Source: a virus (taxonomy: Duplodnaviria > Heunggongvirae > Uroviricota > Caudoviricetes). From it: DNA of 64,000 nt. The stretch lies in IMG/VR virus record IMGVR_UViG_3300011008_000003. One strand, given 5' to 3'. Shown here piece by piece: positions 38,088 through 50,851 of this stretch; the stretch's first letter is position 1, and each line of letters begins with the position of its first letter. The notes under the pieces are model-generated. The model had not been told where the DNA came from and did no database searches. It was given only the letters and a program-made list of their open reading frames with translations. The position numbers were made by a program, and so were the translations under genes.

Positions 38088-38951
38088 TTATCCTAGCCTG
38101 TCCCATTCGCTCGCAAGCCTACGTATCTGTTTGTAATAGGCTCTGTCTGCCCAGGAAGGCTCAACCTCGGTAAATTCGTCATACGTACCGCCAATACGCT
38201 TAAACCATGCGGCACAGCTGAATATTACATTATGACGTTCACCGCTCGGAGCGTTTTCGATTTTTTCACCGAGGTATTTTTTCGCATTGTCAAGGTTCAT
38301 ATCGCCCTTGAGCTTTCTAAACATTTCATTCTGTTTTTTCTTTGCAAGCAGATATTCAGTCTGCTTTTCCTGGCACAGTTCATAAGCCAGCTTGAATTCA
38401 TAACCGAGTTCCTTAAATGGATTAAACAAGTCACCGTTATTTATCTTATAATAGTACGGTGCACCTTTTTCCTTGATAGCAGGCATTTTGAAAAACTGTG
38501 CTCTTGTAAAACTTGCTTTATCAGCCATAGGGAAATATTTCAGCATGAAATGATAAGGACTGAAAGCTTCGTTATGGCCTTTGAAGAACAATAATTGAAT
38601 ATCGTATTCCTTATCCAGGAATAGAAAAACACGGAATTTCTGGTTCGTTCCGTCATAAGAATGTGACGTATGAAGAATGAACATAAAATTCCTAAATGTA
38701 CTTTCAAATTCGTCGATTGTATATGTAGGACTATCGAAATCAAGAATCAGCACATCGGTAGAATCAATATTTTCGGTCTGTCTCTTAGTTCCTTTGACCG
38801 TGCAGAATTTCCACTGCGGAATCATATCTTTCTTTTCGACAACCAATGGATGCTGAATAACATGCATAAACTGGCGCATGGCCTTATCTGACCATTCCAT
38901 CGGATGCATTTCATTATCATATTGATTTTTTATGTACTGAAGTACTCTCAT
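38088..38951 (-). CDS. hypothetical protein, possible primase-polymerase (AEP) like
   Basis: VLILDFD acidic motif and ILHTSHSYDG motif, which is a weak resemblance. Start moved to Met MRVLQY because the tracked N-terminus contains the TATAAATA box and terminator. Confidence 0.3.
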   Translation of the reverse strand: MRVLQYIKNQYDNEMHPMEWSDKAMRQFMHVIQHPLVVEKKDMIPQWKFCTVKGTKRQTENIDSTDVLILDFDSPTYTIDEFESTFRNFMFILHTSHSYDGTNQKFRVFLFLDKEYDIQLLFFKGHNEAFSPYHFMLKYFPMADKASFTRAQFFKMPAIKEKGAPYYYKINNGDLFNPFKELGYEFKLAYELCQEKQTEYLLAKKKQNEMFRKLKGDMNLDNAKKYLGEKIENAPSGERHNVIFSCAAWFKRIGGTYDEFTEVEPSWADRAYYKQIRRLASEWDRLG

Positions 38952-39018
38952 AGCAATCTTAAATATAGTAAAAAATAACAAGTATTTTTGGACTAAATAA
39001 TTTTTTCGAAAATATTTA

Positions 39019-39046
39019 TAAAGGGAACGGTTTCCCATTCCCTTTA
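39019..39046 (-). terminator. intrinsic terminator ending the membrane operon (gggaa-accg-ttccc + T-rich)
   Basis: GC-rich hairpin on the minus strand followed by TTTATAAATATTTT, directly after the flotillin stop. Confidence 0.45.
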
Positions 39047-39070
39047 ATAAATCAGCTCATTGTATTAGGA

Positions 39071-40702
39071 TTAGCGACGACGACGGCGTTGCTGATCACC
39101 AAGAATCTGAGCAGCGATGTTTTCGGCCTGAGCATTTGTAATGCCCGGGAAAACCTGTTCAGATTCCTGTGCCGGAGCCTTCGGCGCTTCAGCCTTCGGA
39201 GCTTCCTCAGCGACAACTTCAGCTTCAGCCTTTTCAACGGTCTTCGGAGTGCCAGCGACACCAGCGAGGCGAGCGCCGAACATAGATCCGAGAACGGTCT
39301 TAAGGTCGAGACCGAGGGAATCAGTCAAACCGTTGGAAACCTGAGTAAGGGTCTTGGTGATGTCACCAGTAAGCTGAGCAGTATTGCCCTGGCCGTACAT
39401 AGTGATGTTGCCAATCTTTTCCATCGGCTTTGCGATTGCACCAGCGATAGCCGGGAGCTGTTCGAAATACTTCTCAATAGTCTTGAGCTGCATTTCCTGG
39501 CGAGCTGCGTCACCGTACTTCTTCATAGCTTCTGCCTTCTGGTCGAGTGCAGCAGCTTCTGCAAGGCCCTTAGCCTTTACAGCGTCAGCTTCTGCTTCGC
39601 CCTTAGCCTTAGTAGCGGCAGCTTCAGCGAAAGCCTTCTGCTTGTCAGCTTCAGCCTTAGCCTTAATAGCTTCAGCCTGTTGCTTCTGAGTGAAGAGTGC
39701 AGCTTCAGCTTCCTTCTGCTGCTTATAGAGGTCAGCGTCAGACTTCTGAATCTGTGCCTGCTTTTCAGCTTCAGCCTTCTTCTGAATTTCTGCTTCGAGT
39801 TCCTTCTGACGGACAGCTACCATGCGTTCGCGGATTTCAATCTGCTTTTCCTGCTTTGCAACTTCAGCAGCTGCAGCAGTGATGTTAATGGTCTTCTGCT
39901 GTTCCTGCTTCTGAATTTCGTAAGCAGCGTCAGCTTCAGCCTTCTTGGTATCAGAGATACGCTTAAGGTCAGCCTTCTTAACTTCAAGGTCATTCTGCTT
40001 CTGTGCGATTTCGAGGTTAGCAGCAACCTGGGCGTCATTTGCAGACTTAGCAGCTTCAGCCTGTGCAATCTTCACGTCGCGTTCAGCATTTGCACGAGAA
40101 ATAGAAGCAGCCTTCTGGATTGCTACGGCCTTATCGACACCGAGGTTTTCGATAACCTTGCCGTCATCGGAGAAGTTCTGAATGTTGAAGGTTTCGACGA
40201 TAACGCCGAGCTTCTTAAGGTCAGGAATAGCGTTTTCAAGAACCTTTTCAGAAACCTGCTTACGGTCAGTAACCATGTCGACCAGGTTCATCTGGCCGAC
40301 AATCTCACGCATGTTACCCTCCAAAACGTCGACAATCATTCCCTTGATAGTACCGATGTCTTTGTTCAAGAAGTTCTGTGCAGCTTTCTTAATATCGTCC
40401 GGTTGGTCAGAAATCTTCGCATTAACAACAGCGTCGACCGTAACGTTAATGTAATCCTTGGTCGGAACCGCGTTCTGGGTCTTGACGTCAATCGGAATCA
40501 ACTTCAAGCTAAGAACGTCAGCACGTTCAAGGAACGGAATCTTGAAACCGGCATGACCGATAATTGTTCGGAGCTGTCGGAAACCAGAGATGATGATTAC
40601 TTCGTCCGGCGCAGCCTTGATGTAAGACGTAACGAAGAGGATGATAATGAACAGTACGAACAGGCCGATGCCCGCACCGATGAGGAAGTTGGAACTAATC
40701 AT
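39071..40702 (-). CDS. SPFH/band-7 flotillin-like membrane protein
   Basis: N-terminal TM helix, an SPFH domain (PDEVIIISGFRQLRTIIGHAGFKIPFLER...) and a roughly 300-aa A/E/K/Q coiled-coil flotillin-type tail. GC content visibly higher than the surroundings. Confidence 0.8.
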   Translation of the reverse strand: MISSNFLIGAGIGLFVLFIIILFVTSYIKAAPDEVIIISGFRQLRTIIGHAGFKIPFLERADVLSLKLIPIDVKTQNAVPTKDYINVTVDAVVNAKISDQPDDIKKAAQNFLNKDIGTIKGMIVDVLEGNMREIVGQMNLVDMVTDRKQVSEKVLENAIPDLKKLGVIVETFNIQNFSDDGKVIENLGVDKAVAIQKAASISRANAERDVKIAQAEAAKSANDAQVAANLEIAQKQNDLEVKKADLKRISDTKKAEADAAYEIQKQEQQKTINITAAAAEVAKQEKQIEIRERMVAVRQKELEAEIQKKAEAEKQAQIQKSDADLYKQQKEAEAALFTQKQQAEAIKAKAEADKQKAFAEAAATKAKGEAEADAVKAKGLAEAAALDQKAEAMKKYGDAARQEMQLKTIEKYFEQLPAIAGAIAKPMEKIGNITMYGQGNTAQLTGDITKTLTQVSNGLTDSLGLDLKTVLGSMFGARLAGVAGTPKTVEKAEAEVVAEEAPKAEAPKAPAQESEQVFPGITNAQAENIAAQILGDQQRRRRR

Positions 40703-40739
40703 TGATTGATCCTTTGTTGATGTTTGTTTCAGTTAGTAT

Positions 40740-41480
40740 CTAATCGTTCAGCCATGCGTTATCCATTGCGACAAAGACACAACAAACAATTAAAATCACG
40801 GCTGAGAAAATTAACCAGAAATAAAGCACTGCGTGTTTCCAGCTAAATGCATCTATCGCCTGGTCAATCGTAACATTATTCCGGAATTCTCCATCATTAA
40901 TTCGATGATTTTCGACATTAGCGTAAAGCGTTCCAGTATAAGTCAAATTCCTGCCATAATAGACATGTCGTCTATTCTGGGCAAAATTCACAGTTTTTAT
41001 ATAATTGCCTTCAGGCAGTTTTGGGAATGCAGAATAGTAAAACTCTTTCTTAAGGAATTTAATCTTTTCTACAGCCCAGTCATCGGCACCTTTATAATCC
41101 CATGTCCAGTAAACCTGGGTATGGCACGAGCGAGTCTTACCAGAACCAGTACAGACGAGCCTGGTGTGCATCGTATAGACTTCTAATACACGATGTATTG
41201 ACATATACTGTCCAGGGATATTATTGTCCGTAACGCTGCCTATGGCTTCGGCGGTACCGTATGACAATGTATGTCCAGCATCAGTCTTAAAGGCATAGGC
41301 GAACTGTGTAGAATCGTTATCGATTTTAACAGCCTGGTTATACTTGGCATTATGTTCGTCTTGCCAAATACCCATCCTATTGCCGACATAAAACCCTATG
41401 CCGATTGAGATAAGAGCGAAAATGATTGCGATAATCAGCTCTTTCTGTGTAACTTCAATATTGGTATCGCCGATATACAT
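40740..41480 (-). CDS. membrane protein with N- and C-terminal TM helices (246 aa)
   Basis: Hydrophobic segments at both ends with a roughly 180-aa extracytoplasmic middle. Co-operonic with the LemA and flotillin genes. Confidence 0.45.
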   Translation of the reverse strand: MYIGDTNIEVTQKELIIAIIFALISIGIGFYVGNRMGIWQDEHNAKYNQAVKIDNDSTQFAYAFKTDAGHTLSYGTAEAIGSVTDNNIPGQYMSIHRVLEVYTMHTRLVCTGSGKTRSCHTQVYWTWDYKGADDWAVEKIKFLKKEFYYSAFPKLPEGNYIKTVNFAQNRRHVYYGRNLTYTGTLYANVENHRINDGEFRNNVTIDQAIDAFSWKHAVLYFWLIFSAVILIVCCVFVAMDNAWLND

Positions 41481-41483
41481 TTA

Positions 41484-42023
41484 TTAGTCCTTCAAAAGGC
41501 CAGTGGGTGCGTCTACGGGCGCATTTTGGAATTCGAGATATTCATAGTTCTTTTCCTGATAGCCCAAAATACTCAAGAAGATACGGGTCGGGAACATCTG
41601 GATATGACGCTTGTAATCACGAACGTTTGCATTGTAATATTTTCTGTGTGAACTGATACGATTTTCGGTCATGGCTAACTCGCTCATGTACCTGTCGTAA
41701 TTTTCGATAGAGCGCAACTGCGGATAACGTTCCACGACGCCCTTGATGTAAGCAGAAGCTGTGACGTTGCCCTTGCCTTCGTCTGGTGTACGTGCTTCTG
41801 AAAGCTTAATGAGAACTTCCGCCTCATGCTTATTGTAAGACTTGACTGCTTCCGCCAAGTTGACGAGCAAGCCGGCTCGTCGATTATATTCTGCGTTTAA
41901 GTCGCTAAGAGAGCTTTCTACAAGCTGTTCCTTGGCGATTGCTGTATTCTGTGAGCTTTGTACTCCGAATACACACATTAAGATTACGGCTACAACGATA
42001 CCGATAATTGCGAGTGCTTTCAT
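41484..42023 (-). CDS. LemA family protein
   Basis: N-terminal TM helix then ERYPQLRS...TENRIS..RKYYNANVRDYKRHIQMFPTRIF, the characteristic LemA signature. Confidence 0.7.
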   Translation of the reverse strand: MKALAIIGIVVAVILMCVFGVQSSQNTAIAKEQLVESSLSDLNAEYNRRAGLLVNLAEAVKSYNKHEAEVLIKLSEARTPDEGKGNVTASAYIKGVVERYPQLRSIENYDRYMSELAMTENRISSHRKYYNANVRDYKRHIQMFPTRIFLSILGYQEKNYEYLEFQNAPVDAPTGLLKD

Positions 42024-42028
42024 TTGGT

Positions 42029-42511
42029 TTACTCCTTTTCTGAAATAAGTTTACTAATGTCTTCTGCAAGCTGTTTTGAAGATGTCTTTACTGTGCCCAG
42101 TAATTCATCATCAGTTGCGATAAACTTGTAATCCCAGCTGATTTGTTCTTTACGTTTGTCATTAATCAACGGGACAAAAATATTAAAATTGCCGTTATAG
42201 TCTTTATAGCATGAATTATCTAAAGTCTTTTGAATTTTATCGACGCCAGTTTTGATAATTGTATTACGAACTTTAAGTTCATTTGTTTTGTTAAGCTCGT
42301 TAACAGAATCCGAATATACCCAGAATACAAGATTACCATATCTGAACCAGGTAGTAATATTACCACCATATTGTTCAACCATTTTGGATCTAATTGTTGG
42401 TTTTTCCGGTTCTTTCGGCATGGAAGATTTCTTATTACTGCACTTCTGAATAATATCACACAGGATATAAAGCGCCATTATTCCCATTAAAATATAAAGA
42501 AATGGAGACAT
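42029..42511 (-). CDS. membrane-anchored hypothetical protein (first gene of the membrane operon)
   Basis: N-terminal TM helix MSPFLYILMGIMALYILCDII and AAAGGAACA RBS. Located 23 nt downstream of the predicted -10. Confidence 0.45.
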   Translation of the reverse strand: MSPFLYILMGIMALYILCDIIQKCSNKKSSMPKEPEKPTIRSKMVEQYGGNITTWFRYGNLVFWVYSDSVNELNKTNELKVRNTIIKTGVDKIQKTLDNSCYKDYNGNFNIFVPLINDKRKEQISWDYKFIATDDELLGTVKTSSKQLAEDISKLISEKE

Positions 42512-42541
42512 TTAGTGTTCCTTTATTGATTCGTTGCGTTA

Positions 42542-42570
42542 AATATAAAAAAGGATTGACATGTTGTCAA
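42542..42570 (-). promoter_or_regulatory. sigma70-like promoter TTGACA-N17-TATATT embedded in an inverted repeat
   Basis: On the minus strand TTGACA (42570-42565), a 17-nt spacer and TATATT (42547-42542) are read directly from the sequence. The palindrome ttgacatgttgtcaa also forms the stem of a terminator for the upstream minus-strand gene. Confidence 0.5.
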
Positions 42571-42598
42571 CCCCTTTTTTAAAGCAATTTATTAAAAA

Positions 42599-47500: not shown

Positions 47501-48310
47501 ATGACCAGTGAAGTTGTTTTATTAGTGAAAACGTCATATTATCATGATACCGTAGAATGGATTGAATGGTATAAGAAGTTGGGATTCGACCATATAACCA
47601 TATATGACAATGAATCTACGATTGACTTCAATACAATAATAGCAAATTATTCAGATTATGTGACATATAATAAAATTGTTGGATTTCCTGACCAACTAAA
47701 TTTGGAATTACAACATTATAGACAGTGCAAGTATGATTATGTCTTTTTTGCAGATGCCGACGAGTTTTTATGGATAGATCCAAAATATAAAAATATAAAT
47801 GAATATCTCGATACAAAATGTCAGAATAATGACATTCATCAGCTGGCTATCTACTGGGTAAAAATTTCAGCAAATCCATGTCCAGAAGCACGTAAAGATA
47901 AACCAGAATCTACTCAAGTTAAAACTTTTAAATATGTTCAAGAAATCGAAAGCGAAAGCTGGATAAAATGTTTTTACAGAACCGGTTTAGATTTTATGTC
48001 TATGCATTGCCATTTCGCATTACCGTATGATAAAATGTATGATACTAATGGAAACTCGATAGTTTTACAAGATATTCGAAAGTGTAATTATAATTATAAT
48101 ATGGATGACGCCATTTTGTATCATTATTTCCATAAATCATGGGAAGAATTCAAAACCAAAATGCAATCCACTTATGCACCAATGAATACGACCTATAAAG
48201 AACTGTACCCGAAATATCAGTTTAAGACATATTATAATTATGCAAGACTGTTATATAGAATAGGATATAATACGTATGATAATAAAATCGAAAAATATCT
48301 CTATGCATAA
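47501..48310 (+). CDS. GT-A glycosyltransferase, GT92/DUF23-like (paralog 1)
   Basis: VEWIEWY...GFDHITIYDNES and DxD FFADADEFLW blocks; very AT-rich gene. Confidence 0.55.
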   Translation: MTSEVVLLVKTSYYHDTVEWIEWYKKLGFDHITIYDNESTIDFNTIIANYSDYVTYNKIVGFPDQLNLELQHYRQCKYDYVFFADADEFLWIDPKYKNINEYLDTKCQNNDIHQLAIYWVKISANPCPEARKDKPESTQVKTFKYVQEIESESWIKCFYRTGLDFMSMHCHFALPYDKMYDTNGNSIVLQDIRKCNYNYNMDDAILYHYFHKSWEEFKTKMQSTYAPMNTTYKELYPKYQFKTYYNYARLLYRIGYNTYDNKIEKYLYA

Positions 48311-49790
48311 TATCGATTATAATGCAATCAATATTCGCTATGAACACGAAGAACCGATTGACGATTACGTTAGTGCAGAAATTACTGAAAATGGAGAATT
48401 ACGATATTGGAATCATATTTTAAGTAAGGTATTTAAATCAGTAAAGAAAGCGCCAAAGATTGAGTTAAAATATTGTTATTATGAATGGTCAAATTGGATT
48501 GATGTATTATGCGGTATTATTCAAGATATTAACAAGATGAATTTTATTCCAAGGATAACAATTCACGTTTATGGGAATATTGAACCGCCGGATATTTTTT
48601 TAAAATATTTTACTGTAACAAAAATAAATAATGTAAAAATAGGTTATCGTGATATGATTATTAAAAGTAGTAATTTTACTAATGACTGGTATATTATACA
48701 AGAAACTCTGACTAGTGTTGATGAATTACTTTCAAAGTATAATAACACAGAAATACGAGATATTCCGTTTAAGTATGATTCTGAAATTTTGTTAATTACG
48801 AATTCAAGAAGATATAATTTTTCGGATTTGGTATATTGGATTTTTTATCATAAAAATGTATTGAAATTTGATAATATTGTGATTGTTCATAATAACAATG
48901 ACGATAAAGATGATCAGCTTGCATTGATGCAAATCTGTAAGTATTTCAATGTTGATTATTTTTATGAACCAGTTGGTTCACAGAAGTTAATTTTTAATAA
49001 GTATCAGAAACTTTCTGAAGCAAAGTGGATGATTTGTATTGATGAAGACGAATTCATTTATTTACCGGATAATATGACAATAAATGAATTGCTAAGCAAA
49101 TATAAAAATGAATATAAGTTAACTTTTGATATGATTAATTTTTATAGCGATGTAATGCTTAGAAATAAGAATAGCAAAACATTTCTTGAAAATTTCAGAT
49201 ATATTTGTCTTGATGATTCAAATAAAAATTTGATTTTCCAGAATGAAACAGATTCATATGCATTAACCCTGTATAAGACTTTTGTTAATAATAAGTTATT
49301 TCATTATTTGATAAACGCCACGAACTCTTTGGTTGATAGAACATTATTTAGTGTTAAGAATGAAAACAATAATAATATTGTTACATTAATTCCAGAGGAT
49401 AAAAAGGTTCTTCGTGCTTTTCATAAGCCTGAAATTGGACTTATTCATAATCCATTTACAATGTATAATAAAGAGATGATTAAGTCTTATAATTTAACGT
49501 CTAAGCTATATGTTAAATATTCATATGAATATGATAAACCGAATGTTTCTCTATTAAATAATCCATTTATAGCGCATTATAAATATAGAACTTTGGAAGA
49601 ATACGCCAATAAAGTTAAGTATAATAAGTTTATGGATGTAACAAGTTGCTATTATGATACAAACTATAAGCTTGATAAATTCTGTAACTTATATGAACAT
49701 AAGACATTCTTTAAGGTTGATAAGTTATATGAAAAATATTTGACCCATGTCAATGAATGGAATATTATAAGACATGAAATCAACTGGTAA
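48276..49790 (+). CDS. GT-A glycosyltransferase, GT92/DUF23-like with N-terminal extension (paralog 2)
   Basis: LVYWIFYHKNV...IVHNNND and DxD ICIDEDEFIY in the C-terminal half. Confidence 0.5.
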   Translation: MIIKSKNISMHNIDYNAINIRYEHEEPIDDYVSAEITENGELRYWNHILSKVFKSVKKAPKIELKYCYYEWSNWIDVLCGIIQDINKMNFIPRITIHVYGNIEPPDIFLKYFTVTKINNVKIGYRDMIIKSSNFTNDWYIIQETLTSVDELLSKYNNTEIRDIPFKYDSEILLITNSRRYNFSDLVYWIFYHKNVLKFDNIVIVHNNNDDKDDQLALMQICKYFNVDYFYEPVGSQKLIFNKYQKLSEAKWMICIDEDEFIYLPDNMTINELLSKYKNEYKLTFDMINFYSDVMLRNKNSKTFLENFRYICLDDSNKNLIFQNETDSYALTLYKTFVNNKLFHYLINATNSLVDRTLFSVKNENNNNIVTLIPEDKKVLRAFHKPEIGLIHNPFTMYNKEMIKSYNLTSKLYVKYSYEYDKPNVSLLNNPFIAHYKYRTLEEYANKVKYNKFMDVTSCYYDTNYKLDKFCNLYEHKTFFKVDKLYEKYLTHVNEWNIIRHEINW

Positions 49791-49801
49791 GGCTCTATAT
49801 T

Positions 49802-50851
49802 ATGATATTGAAAAACAAAAATTACAATATTAAAATTTTTGATAGTGATAGTTATAATAATTATGATTTTAACCAACCGATAGATAAAGAAAAACTATAC
49901 AATACAGAACTAATTTTAATAACGAATTCTAATAATCTGAACGAATTGTTATATTGGCTGTATTGGCATATAAATGTTATTGGTTTTGAACATGTTGTAT
50001 TAATTGATAATTCCAAAGAAAATTTAATCCGACCGTTTATTTCTAAATTTGGAAATTCAATAACATATGTCAAGAAACCTGGCGTAATATCACAATGTGA
50101 AATTTATAATTATTATGTAAAAAATTCAAAATCTAAATGGGTATTGCCATTAGATGATGATGAATATTTGTATATATCTGATAAATTTGACCATAGTATA
50201 AATACATTTATCAAAAAGAATGATTTACCTGTTTACAAATATGCTTTTAACTGGCATATGATGTTTAGTGATACTATAATTGAAAAGAATAATGATTTTT
50301 ATGTAAATCTGTATCAAAGGGAATGCCCGATCGATTATGTAACATTCGACTGTTTTTGGTGTATCAAAACAATGGTCAATACCGAAATCAATCACCTATA
50401 TGTTTCTGATAATGGGGAAATACCGTTTGAATTAAAGCTAAATAATCTCAATATGGATAAAAACTATAGACATACAGATTCTGGATTTTCATTATTCAAA
50501 GTAAATCATATGGGGTCTGTACATAATCCTATAAGTAAGCTGAATAATACTTTCATGCATGCCTATAATTATAATACAGACGATATGACTGTAGGTTTAT
50601 TCTGTAATAACAAGGATAGGAATAGAGATATTTATATTGCACATTATAAGTATAGAGATTTAGATAGTATAAAGTTTAAGATAAAGAATTTTCATTTTAC
50701 TGATATAATGAAACAATATATCAATGACGCCTATAATTTGGATAATTATTATAATGCATTCAATATTATAAGACCATCATTGGTAAAAAATGATGATTTA
50801 TACAATTTATCAAATGAATTTGATTTGGGAAATAAAGTAAAAGCTATATAA
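49802..50851 (+). CDS. GT-A glycosyltransferase, GT92/DUF23-like (paralog 3)
   Basis: LLYWLYWHINVIGFEHVVLIDNS and DxD LPLDDDEYLY. Confidence 0.5.
   Translation: MILKNKNYNIKIFDSDSYNNYDFNQPIDKEKLYNTELILITNSNNLNELLYWLYWHINVIGFEHVVLIDNSKENLIRPFISKFGNSITYVKKPGVISQCEIYNYYVKNSKSKWVLPLDDDEYLYISDKFDHSINTFIKKNDLPVYKYAFNWHMMFSDTIIEKNNDFYVNLYQRECPIDYVTFDCFWCIKTMVNTEINHLYVSDNGEIPFELKLNNLNMDKNYRHTDSGFSLFKVNHMGSVHNPISKLNNTFMHAYNYNTDDMTVGLFCNNKDRNRDIYIAHYKYRDLDSIKFKIKNFHFTDIMKQYINDAYNLDNYYNAFNIIRPSLVKNDDLYNLSNEFDLGNKVKAI

Follow-up and report, generated by a model that had tools for sequence, protein, structure and literature searches.

This study concerns a cassette of four genes on the minus strand of a phage genome, which encodes a FloT-type flotillin, a LemA-family protein and two further membrane proteins, here called orf1 and orf3. 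It lies at positions 39,019 to 42,570 of the window, that is, the whole 64,000-nucleotide stretch of the Caudoviricetes record IMGVR_UViG_3300011008_000003 that was analysed. The flotillin and LemA families are both known, but no description of a flotillin combined with a LemA-orf3 pair in a phage operon was found in the library searched. An earlier reading of the DNA letters (below, the sequence-only reading) had described the cassette as a single, unitary module. That description gives way to a well-supported composite, in which a flotillin of host descent stands beside an orf1 specific to the lineage and a LemA-orf3 module that exists independently in phages. As to function, we favour, with a probability of about 0.45, a membrane-homeostasis auxiliary, that is, a flotillin-scaffolded module of membrane maintenance and organisation rather than a weapon against one competitor.

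The flotillin and its probable source

The flotillin gene (39,071-40,702, minus strand) encodes a protein of 543 amino acids (aa) with an N-terminal hydrophobic anchor (residues 1-27), followed by an SPFH domain, an EA-rich coiled coil, whose coding region carries 33-nt periodic repeats, and a flotillin C-domain. The SPFH/flotillin identity proposed in the sequence-only reading holds, with matches above the cut-offs of the Pfam families Band_7 (PF01145; 83.2 bits, cut-off 23.6, E 3e-23, residues 30-207) and Flot (PF15975; 37.7 bits, cut-off 27, E 3e-9). Residues 29-465 match human flotillin-1 of 9BQ2/9L3G over its full length (E 2e-47). The NCBIfam FloT model NF058507 gives 249.4 bits (E 8e-74), which is below its equivalog cut-off of 700, and the protein is a member of the FloT family, not a strict equivalog of Bacillus subtilis FloT.

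In a scan of 185,579 species genomes, the nearest cellular flotillins are chromosomal proteins of Fibrobacter succinogenes and of other Fibrobacter metagenome-assembled genomes (MAGs), at 70-73% identity, followed by those of Clostridia and Streptococcus at 45-52%. The Fibrobacter gene is found amid housekeeping genes on contigs of up to 462 kb with a G+C content (GC) of 0.51; from their translations, we take its neighbours to be MiaB-, PanD- and ArgS-like. In a neighbour-joining tree, phage and Fibrobacter flotillins form a clade (96/100) within which Fibrobacter is monophyletic (97/100), and the phage flotillin is thus placed as the sister of the Fibrobacter clade and not nested within it. 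This topology fits an old capture from a host of the Fibrobacter lineage. The flotillin phylogeny, the sole basis of the assignment, makes Fibrobacter the likely host, and in this way the flotillin supplies a host lead for a rumen megaphage lineage of ~430 kb (see below).

Such a capture would also explain the raised GC of the cassette, which the sequence-only reading had noticed. GC is 0.46-0.52 over the flotillin gene and about 0.45 over LemA, compared with 0.33-0.41 in the flanks, and GC at the third codon position (GC3) is 0.53 and 0.51, respectively, compared with 0.31-0.44. Among the phages, GC3 of the flotillin gene ranges from 0.30 in the relative L010 to 0.66 in L012, with the window at 0.53, and has drifted toward the composition of each phage since capture. 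Furthermore, the synonymous divergence (dS) of flotillin is about 0.7, whereas that of LemA, orf3, orf1 and the neighbouring dUTPase-like gene is 1.4-2.5 in the same pairs (window against L006/L009 8001-9650), which suggests either codon constraint or a more recent exchange between phage lineages.

The elevated GC and GC3, together with a host gene as the closest relative of the flotillin, could be taken to mean that the cassette is passenger DNA, captured from a host not long ago and of no use in infection. The pattern of selection makes this hardly credible. All reading frames are intact, not disrupted as in a decaying host fragment, and the ratios of nonsynonymous to synonymous divergence (dN/dS) lie far below 1: against the close relative L005 they run from 0.03 for LemA through 0.06 for orf3 and 0.07 for flotillin to 0.28 for orf1, and over all comparisons LemA stays within 0.03-0.09 and flotillin within 0.07-0.16. 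The cassette is retained across lineages whose flanking proteins share only 40-46% identity; in the more distant phages flotillin is still 85-91% identical while the dUTPase-like flank falls to 46%. In addition, only the flotillin is host-like, and both its sister position and its drifted GC3 speak against a recent arrival.

Flotillins are not confined to this phage group. FloT-like proteins occur in at least 229 IMG/VR stretches (including L014-L026, L001 (MT835492) and L125-L195), mostly on contigs of 80-425 kb, of which some loci could be host DNA beside prophages. Ten sampled IMG/VR flotillins form an all-viral clade that is 40-45% identical to the window flotillin and has unrelated neighbour genes, and PHROGs v4 holds no family that matches the window protein. 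The number of these stretches and the existence of an all-viral clade point to a cell-biological rather than an arms-race role.

Compared with the host protein, the window flotillin is 73% identical in the SPFH domain, 71% in the coiled coil and 78% in the C-domain, and this even conservation suggests that the scaffold function has been retained. It also bears on the idea that the phage takes over the flotillin or the membrane quality control of its host. Here, the phage protein, 72% identical overall, would co-assemble with or replace the host flotillin and redirect its clients, such as FtsH- or HtpX-type proteases, secretion or signalling, with LemA and orf3 as adaptors. Links of SPFH proteins with FtsH, and of LemA with HtpX, are established. 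The high and even identity over the oligomerisation regions, the phage-specific C-terminal tail described next and the invariant His and Cys residues of orf3, suggestive of a metal or redox site, would all suit such a takeover. The cassette nevertheless includes no protease or other client gene, and the divergence of the all-viral clade means that mimicry of a host protein is not established as a general feature, so that we consider a takeover quite unlikely.

The tail is a C-terminal extension of 46 aa (39,074-39,211, minus strand; AEEAPKAEAPKAP...ILGDQQRRRRR) with a polybasic end, which is absent from the Fibrobacter flotillins (about 496-504 aa). A tail with basic residues at or near the C-terminus is likewise present in L006, L009, L010, L012 and L108; it ends in RRRRR in the window, L006, L009 and L108, and in RKRKH in L010. 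Flotillin-1/2, HflK/C and QmcA form membrane-capping cages, and the C-termini of flotillins meet at the cap in the cages whose structures are solved. Poly-Arg tails, arranged as a ring on top of a dome, might thus tether nucleic acid or acidic phage proteins, turning the flotillin into a membrane platform for replication, packaging or the timing of lysis. The retention of this phage-specific tail in every lineage of the clade would be accounted for, as would the location of the cassette amid replication genes (gp32, DnaB, primase-like, exonuclease). Set against this are the other viral flotillins examined, none of which has a polybasic tail, and the consideration that a place among replication genes may reflect no more than shared timing of expression; a platform of this kind seems improbable.

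LemA, orf3 and orf1

The LemA-family protein (41,484-42,023, minus strand; 179 aa) consists of an N-terminal transmembrane (TM) helix at residues 3-21 and a four-helix-bundle domain. Its assignment, also correct in the sequence-only reading, is based on Pfam PF04011 (93 bits, cut-off 26.2, E 2e-26), phrog_1383 (E 5e-30) and the structure PDB 2ETD (E 3e-20). With the MamQ model NCBIfam NF040966 it reaches 55 bits, below the equivalog cut-off of 250. Directly downstream, orf3 (40,740-41,480, minus strand; 246 aa) has the hydrophobic helices near both ends that had been predicted from the letters, at about residues 15-33 and 221-239. It belongs to phrog_3886 (E 1.1e-48, residues 7-244 against profile positions 5-262 of 263), a family that comprises 811 clusters at 50% identity in a profile search.

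No Pfam domain was found in orf3 or in the family members tested. In the AF2 model of orf3 (pLDDT 88.5), two TM helices flank a beta-rich domain of ~175 aa. Residues H105, C110, C119 and H120 are invariant. None of the solved structures searched resembles the model, and its matches in BFVD are uncharacterised proteins of phages and giant viruses. Among the latter are "ORFan" membrane proteins of Satyrvirus, Tupanvirus, Klosneuvirus and Hyperionvirus (Foldseek probability 1.0, TM-score about 0.4), and the predicted TM-beta-TM fold may be common to very different groups of viruses. The label TMEM43/DUF1625, which some phage records carry, was considered and dropped, as neither orf3 (E <= 0.01) nor ten distant relatives (E <= 0.1) match it in Pfam. 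Of the domains named for a profile search in the sequence-only reading, Band_7, Flot and LemA were matched, but neither orf1 nor orf3 has a Pfam match to TPM_phosphatase, NfeD or, in addition, HtpX (M48).

In many other phages, an orf3-family gene follows LemA directly or after one small open reading frame (ORF). These include the Enterococcus phages of the genus Schiekvirus (EfV12-phi1, GVEsP-1), Lysinibacillus phage LC76P1, Lactococcus phage PLg-TB25, Latilactobacillus phage TMW 1.46 P1 and metagenomic contigs; identity between the window and the cultured phages is 39-45% for LemA and about 30% for orf3. No flotillin was found near the pair in Schiekvirus, LC76P1, PLg-TB25, TMW 1.46 P1 or the metagenomic contigs examined, and the cultured phages also lack orf1. 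LemA and orf3 thus appear to form an independent phage module, in which orf3 is the constant partner of phage LemA. In TMW 1.46 P1 the pair ends the early/replication block, just before the RinA and terminase genes, and in the unannotated siphovirus PLg-TB25 it has the corresponding position. Phage records label the homologues inconsistently, with LemA as "virion structural protein", "putative repressor" or "LemA family protein" and orf3 as "transmembrane protein 43" (NC_029009, NC_048087, PV523735, PQ571287, MN241318, OP455939); membership in the LemA family was confirmed.

The first gene of the cassette, orf1 (42,029-42,511, minus strand; 160 aa), has one N-terminal TM helix, in line with the N-anchored protein foreseen in the sequence-only reading. 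Its family has 56 members, all metagenomic and with no known domain, which share the motif WF(R/K)Y..L.FW.Y.DS. In the model (pLDDT 73.8) the anchor is joined to a small alpha/beta domain, which is probably cytoplasmic. An identification as NfeD was rejected, with no Pfam match and no OB-fold in the model. The protein evolves fast, with 21-33% identity between lineages and dN/dS of 0.28-0.56.

A survey of related phages, as the sequence-only reading had proposed, recovered the cassette in relatives of up to 428 kb but not always in full. L010 and L013 lack LemA and orf3; in both, the orthologue of orf1 lies directly 5' of flotillin and overlaps the flotillin start codon. L012, a 348-kb relative with a GC of 0.51, lacks orf1. 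Between its orf3 and flotillin genes lies a gene (L012 7578-7988) for a 136-aa G/V/D-rich repeat protein (GDVxVxGxV-like); this was considered as a bactofilin and set aside since no Pfam match was obtained.

The distribution and evolution of these partners are of specific importance for the possibility of superinfection exclusion, for which the T4 proteins Imm and Sp and the Sie proteins are precedents of membrane proteins that exclude. According to this explanation, orf1, LemA and orf3, made early in the inner membrane and perhaps organised by flotillin, would stop later DNA injection. All four proteins are membrane-anchored, the promoter looks early, the large domain of orf3 between its two TM helices could face the periplasm, and the rapid change of orf1 is as seen in arms-race proteins. 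LemA, orf3 and flotillin are nonetheless under strong purifying selection and occur in phages whose hosts belong to different phyla, as is seldom the case for proteins that exclude specific competitors. Moreover, the LemA-orf3 pair of temperate siphoviruses belongs to the early lytic region, whereas Sie genes are usually part of the lysogeny module; exclusion does not require a nearly intact host scaffold; and no component model of PADLOC-DB v2 is matched by any of the four proteins (E <= 0.01). Exclusion is therefore rather unlikely. The sharing of LemA-orf3 by phages of Enterococcus, Lysinibacillus, Lactococcus, Latilactobacillus and, presumably, Fibrobacter, and its place in early or replication-adjacent regions instead of lysogeny modules, argue for a cell-biological rather than an arms-race role, as does the spread of viral flotillins.

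A second lineage of phages brings the same parts close together. In contigs of 145-150 kb with a GC of 0.32, represented by L196 (5221-10557) and also by L197 and L198, LemA, an orf3-family gene, four small genes and flotillin follow each other on one strand, with LemA-orf3 2.4 kb upstream of flotillin. Judged from the translations, one of the small genes is presumably metallophosphatase-like and one nucleotidyltransferase-like. The proteins are 50% (flotillin), 41% (LemA) and 30% (orf3) identical to those of the window, and the locus would represent a second, independent LemA-orf3-flotillin association in apparently unrelated phages. This proximity, and the overlap of orf1 with the flotillin start codon in L010, point to a functional link between the modules. 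A chromosomal arrangement in the Streptococcus parasanguinis group (L073-L106, e.g. L105) is looser: LemA and then a four-TM protein, which we take to be HtpX-like in L105, lie about 4.5 kb 5' of flotillin, and the intervening genes look unrelated, so that the proximity may be coincidental.

Transcription and genomic setting

The four genes are arranged as the sequence-only reading had listed them, in the same direction, at the same places and with the same lengths. From orf1 to flotillin they are separated by gaps of 5, 3 and 37 nt, and an AGGA-type ribosome-binding site precedes each. Upstream, a promoter-like TTGACA-N17-TATATT sequence (42,542-42,570, minus strand) is found 36 nt 5' of the orf1 start codon. 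It lies inside a hairpin with a T-run (AAAAAAGGGGTTGACA-ACA-TGTCAATCCTTTTTT; 42,547-42,580, minus strand), which overlaps the -35 box and has a folding free energy (dG) of -17.5 kcal/mol (z -5.2). The site scores 11/12 and is the best of 46 in a 12-kb scan; its extended form, GGTTGAC-N14-20-TATATT, occurs once in the window compared with 0.01 expected. This hairpin probably ends the transcripts of the upstream dUTPase-like gene or insulates the cassette from them.

At the other end, a terminator-like GC hairpin (39,019-39,046, minus strand; dG -20.2 kcal/mol, z -5.2) would close the unit. A generic terminator scan is overall not above chance (10 found, 9.4 expected). Each related lineage has a different hairpin and T-run at the same place 3' of the flotillin stop codon. 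Known from the letters of the DNA, these promoter and hairpin motifs keep their positions across relatives and delimit a putative transcription unit with a promoter and a terminator of its own; the operon-like layout of the sequence-only reading is to this extent borne out.

The promoter, by which the sequence-only reading delimited the cassette, is not special to it. The combination of hairpin, TTGAC and TATATT is found 5' of orf1 in every relative that bears orf1 (L004-L010, L013, L108), even though the flanking genes vary, and in related phages 2-5 copies per 17 kb precede other genes. The element represents a class of promoters in this phage group and not a private signal of the cassette. 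The element remains joined to orf1 where an inserted gene for a DUF7487 protein (333 aa, with its own TATAAATA box) separates the dUTPase-like gene from the cassette promoter, as in L108 (8911-9912), the 428-kb near-identical relative, and also in L109 and L110. Further copies of the DUF7487 gene are found in L113 and none in the window, and it behaves as a mobile, homing-type gene.

The box TATAAATA, identical to the late-promoter box of T4, occurs 32 times in the window, compared with 11 expected. Although intergenic DNA makes up 4.5% of the window, 18 copies are intergenic, 12-96 nt 5' of genes; examples of sites are 1267, 2199, 5182, 6143, 20893, 26497, 33385, 39020, 47463, 55647 and 59351. 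This suggests a T4-like late transcription system in the megaphage. Not all genes around the cassette use the box, as had been supposed: genes downstream of the cassette have it in front of them, the first copy (39,013-39,020) lying directly after the terminator hairpin, but the upstream dUTPase-like, 107-aa, gp32 and DnaB genes do not. Before gp32 and DnaB a T-run with an (A/C)TATATTT box stands in its place. Early expression of the cassette from host RNA polymerase is a reasonable inference from its promoter motif.

The T-run with (A/C)TATATTT(A/G) is a second recurrent motif of the window (44953, 47389, 47487, 59409, 62475, 32153, 29089), which precedes gp32, DnaB, a helicase gene and others, often with a hairpin 5' of it and in several cases at a distance of only 13-15 nt from the start codon. 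The motif is similar to the -7 box (TAnnTTTG) of promoters of the Bacteroidota type, and Fibrobacter belongs to the same FCB superphylum.

The cassette is surrounded by genes which, according to Pfam and PHROG, encode a gp32-type single-stranded-DNA-binding protein, DnaB, a dUTPase_2/MazG-like protein, a primase-like protein, an exonuclease, NrdD and a helicase; many other proteins of the window have no PHROG or Pfam match. A near-identical relative in IMG/VR and ENA is a contig of 427,710 bp, whose gene order matches the window and whose orf1 is 92% identical, and close relatives of the cassette region occur in the same databases on contigs of 348-428 kb. The replication and nucleotide genes around the cassette and contigs of this size indicate that the unit is phage-borne. 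The window is, with good support, part of an uncultured rumen megaphage of ~430 kb; the records of several related contigs name goat, yak or sheep gut compartments. A megablast search of the cassette against 50,697 phage records gave no cultured close relative and no similarity to deposited phages at the DNA level.

Several MAG contigs carry the cassette, or parts of it, beside the primase-like gene and the exonuclease, or LemA and orf3 (L028, L029, L041 and, labelled Fibrobacter, L039). The "Methanobrevibacter" (L028, L029) and "Prevotella" (L041) contigs were considered as cellular homes of the cassette and rejected, as they have the same phage neighbours as L010 and L012. All four are almost certainly megaphage contigs that were mis-binned into cellular MAGs, and they are flagged here as probable phage DNA.

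Two further features of the window concern other genes. The listed ATG (39,038) of the primase-like ORF (38,088-39,038, minus strand) falls within the terminator hairpin of the cassette, and the orthologue in L010 aligns from residue 28 only. The true start is probably the ATG near 38,951, after the TATAAATA copy next to the terminator and TTTTTTACTATATTTAA (about 38,959-38,975). At 47,501-50,851 (plus strand), an island of very low GC (0.24-0.31, compared with about 0.37 elsewhere) contains three consecutive glycosyltransferases (GT92, GT2_4) and may be a separately acquired module that modifies DNA, the virion or the host surface.

A proposed role and its relation to known systems

In the membrane-homeostasis reading, which we prefer, transcription of the cassette would start at a sigma70-like promoter whose class also serves other, non-late genes in this phage group. 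The N-terminal hairpin of flotillin would enter the cytoplasmic membrane, and the EA-rich coiled coil would oligomerise the protein into SPFH domes, as in solved flotillin, HflK/C and QmcA. These domes would mark patches of membrane and perhaps enclose or organise the co-expressed LemA, orf3 and orf1, which would act within the flotillin domains or alongside them. As a consequence, the cytoplasmic membrane of the host would stay ordered, sealed and energised, and its membrane-protein machinery would keep working. This presupposes a shut-off of host gene expression and a long infection cycle of the megaphage, both of which are assumptions. Background knowledge in line with this reading is that FloT of B. 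subtilis is under SigW control as part of the envelope-stress response, that QmcA in multicopy suppresses the combined loss of ftsH and htpX, and that LemA often occurs together with HtpX.

Several points weigh against this reading. If the cassette served as a spare copy of a host gene, the phage-specific polybasic tail would be left without explanation. The majority of viral flotillins have no such partners, and LemA-orf3 is mostly found without a flotillin, so that the parts do not strictly need each other. The early timing is derived from promoter resemblance only, and when one host locus was scanned for sigma70-like promoters, 17 sites were found where 9.6 were expected. Finally, a beta-rich domain of orf3 in the periplasm, if that is its location, would make an envelope role such as exclusion more attractive.

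A closely related explanation assigns the module to counter-defence, in that it would stabilise or repair the membrane against pore-forming or depolarising abortive-infection effectors. Damage to the envelope is known to elicit a response from flotillins and other membrane-stress proteins. Parts drawn from membrane-scaffold and membrane-stress families, and an expression that looks early, would be in keeping with such a role. However, the proteins have no likeness to a known anti-defence protein and the cassette no link to defence loci, and the explanation overlaps with membrane homeostasis, from which it differs only in the cause of the damage. As an account of its own we regard it as a long shot.

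A bolder and unlikely variant proceeds from the tail. Here, the tailed flotillin would co-assemble with or replace that of the host and enclose LemA, orf3 and orf1 in phage-built, flotillin-caged microdomains, that is, in a virus-specified compartment for replication or packaging, the timing of lysis or exclusion. If this were true, the hundreds of viral flotillins and the second LemA-orf3-flotillin linkage would mark a general and unrecognised phage strategy.

Returning to membrane homeostasis, the cassette is of interest beyond this phage since flotillin and LemA are widespread, yet their functions in bacteria are poorly understood. A flotillin that was captured, kept under selection, modified by a tail and placed in an operon with a LemA pair points to a pathway shared by these proteins, and to a requirement for membrane organisation in infection by very large phages. 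The pair of LemA and phrog_3886 can be tested directly in the cultured phages of Enterococcus, Lysinibacillus, Lactococcus and Latilactobacillus.

Full-text searches of the library used returned no paper on phage modules of flotillin, SPFH or LemA proteins or on Fibrobacter jumbo phages, and overviews of jumbo phages contained nothing of the kind; the suspicion that the module had not been described before agrees with this. Only an SPFH-like lipoprotein is mentioned, in passing, for the Schitoviridae phage GIB1 (PMC13239085). Published work on LemA-like proteins lends context to the membrane-homeostasis reading: MamQ is required for the formation of the magnetosome membrane (PMC3905215), and in mycobacteria a domain of this kind is a proposed scaffold close to the membrane (bioRxiv 10.64898/2026.07.15.738315).

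Compared with known systems, the cassette is not an NfeD-SPFH, LemA-TPM or LemA-HtpX operon, nor a catalogued defence system. Bacterial SPFH operons (yuaF-floT, ybbJ-qmcA, hflK/C-FtsH) likewise combine an SPFH scaffold with small membrane proteins, including a small N-anchored protein directly upstream, but the cassette has no NfeD or protease partner and has LemA and phrog_3886 instead. The bacterial FloT/YuaG flotillins have the same architecture of anchor, SPFH domain, EA-rich coiled coil and C-domain as the phage protein, which differs in its phage promoter element, its 46-aa tail ending in RRRRR and the lack of an NfeD-type partner. With phage morons and auxiliary metabolic genes the cassette shares a host-derived gene whose composition drifts to that of the phage, here in a probably self-contained unit; its cargo, however, is not a metabolic enzyme but a structural scaffold of the membrane, and it stands in an operon with phage-native membrane proteins. 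T4 Imm and Sp and other exclusion proteins are also small membrane proteins of a lytic phage, probably made early, to which there is no sequence or fold similarity, and three of the four cassette proteins are slowly evolving members of widespread families. A further counterpart of a part of the cassette is the LemA and phrog_3886 pair of cultured phages, with the same adjacent order and the same architectures, to which the megaphage cassette adds flotillin and orf1.

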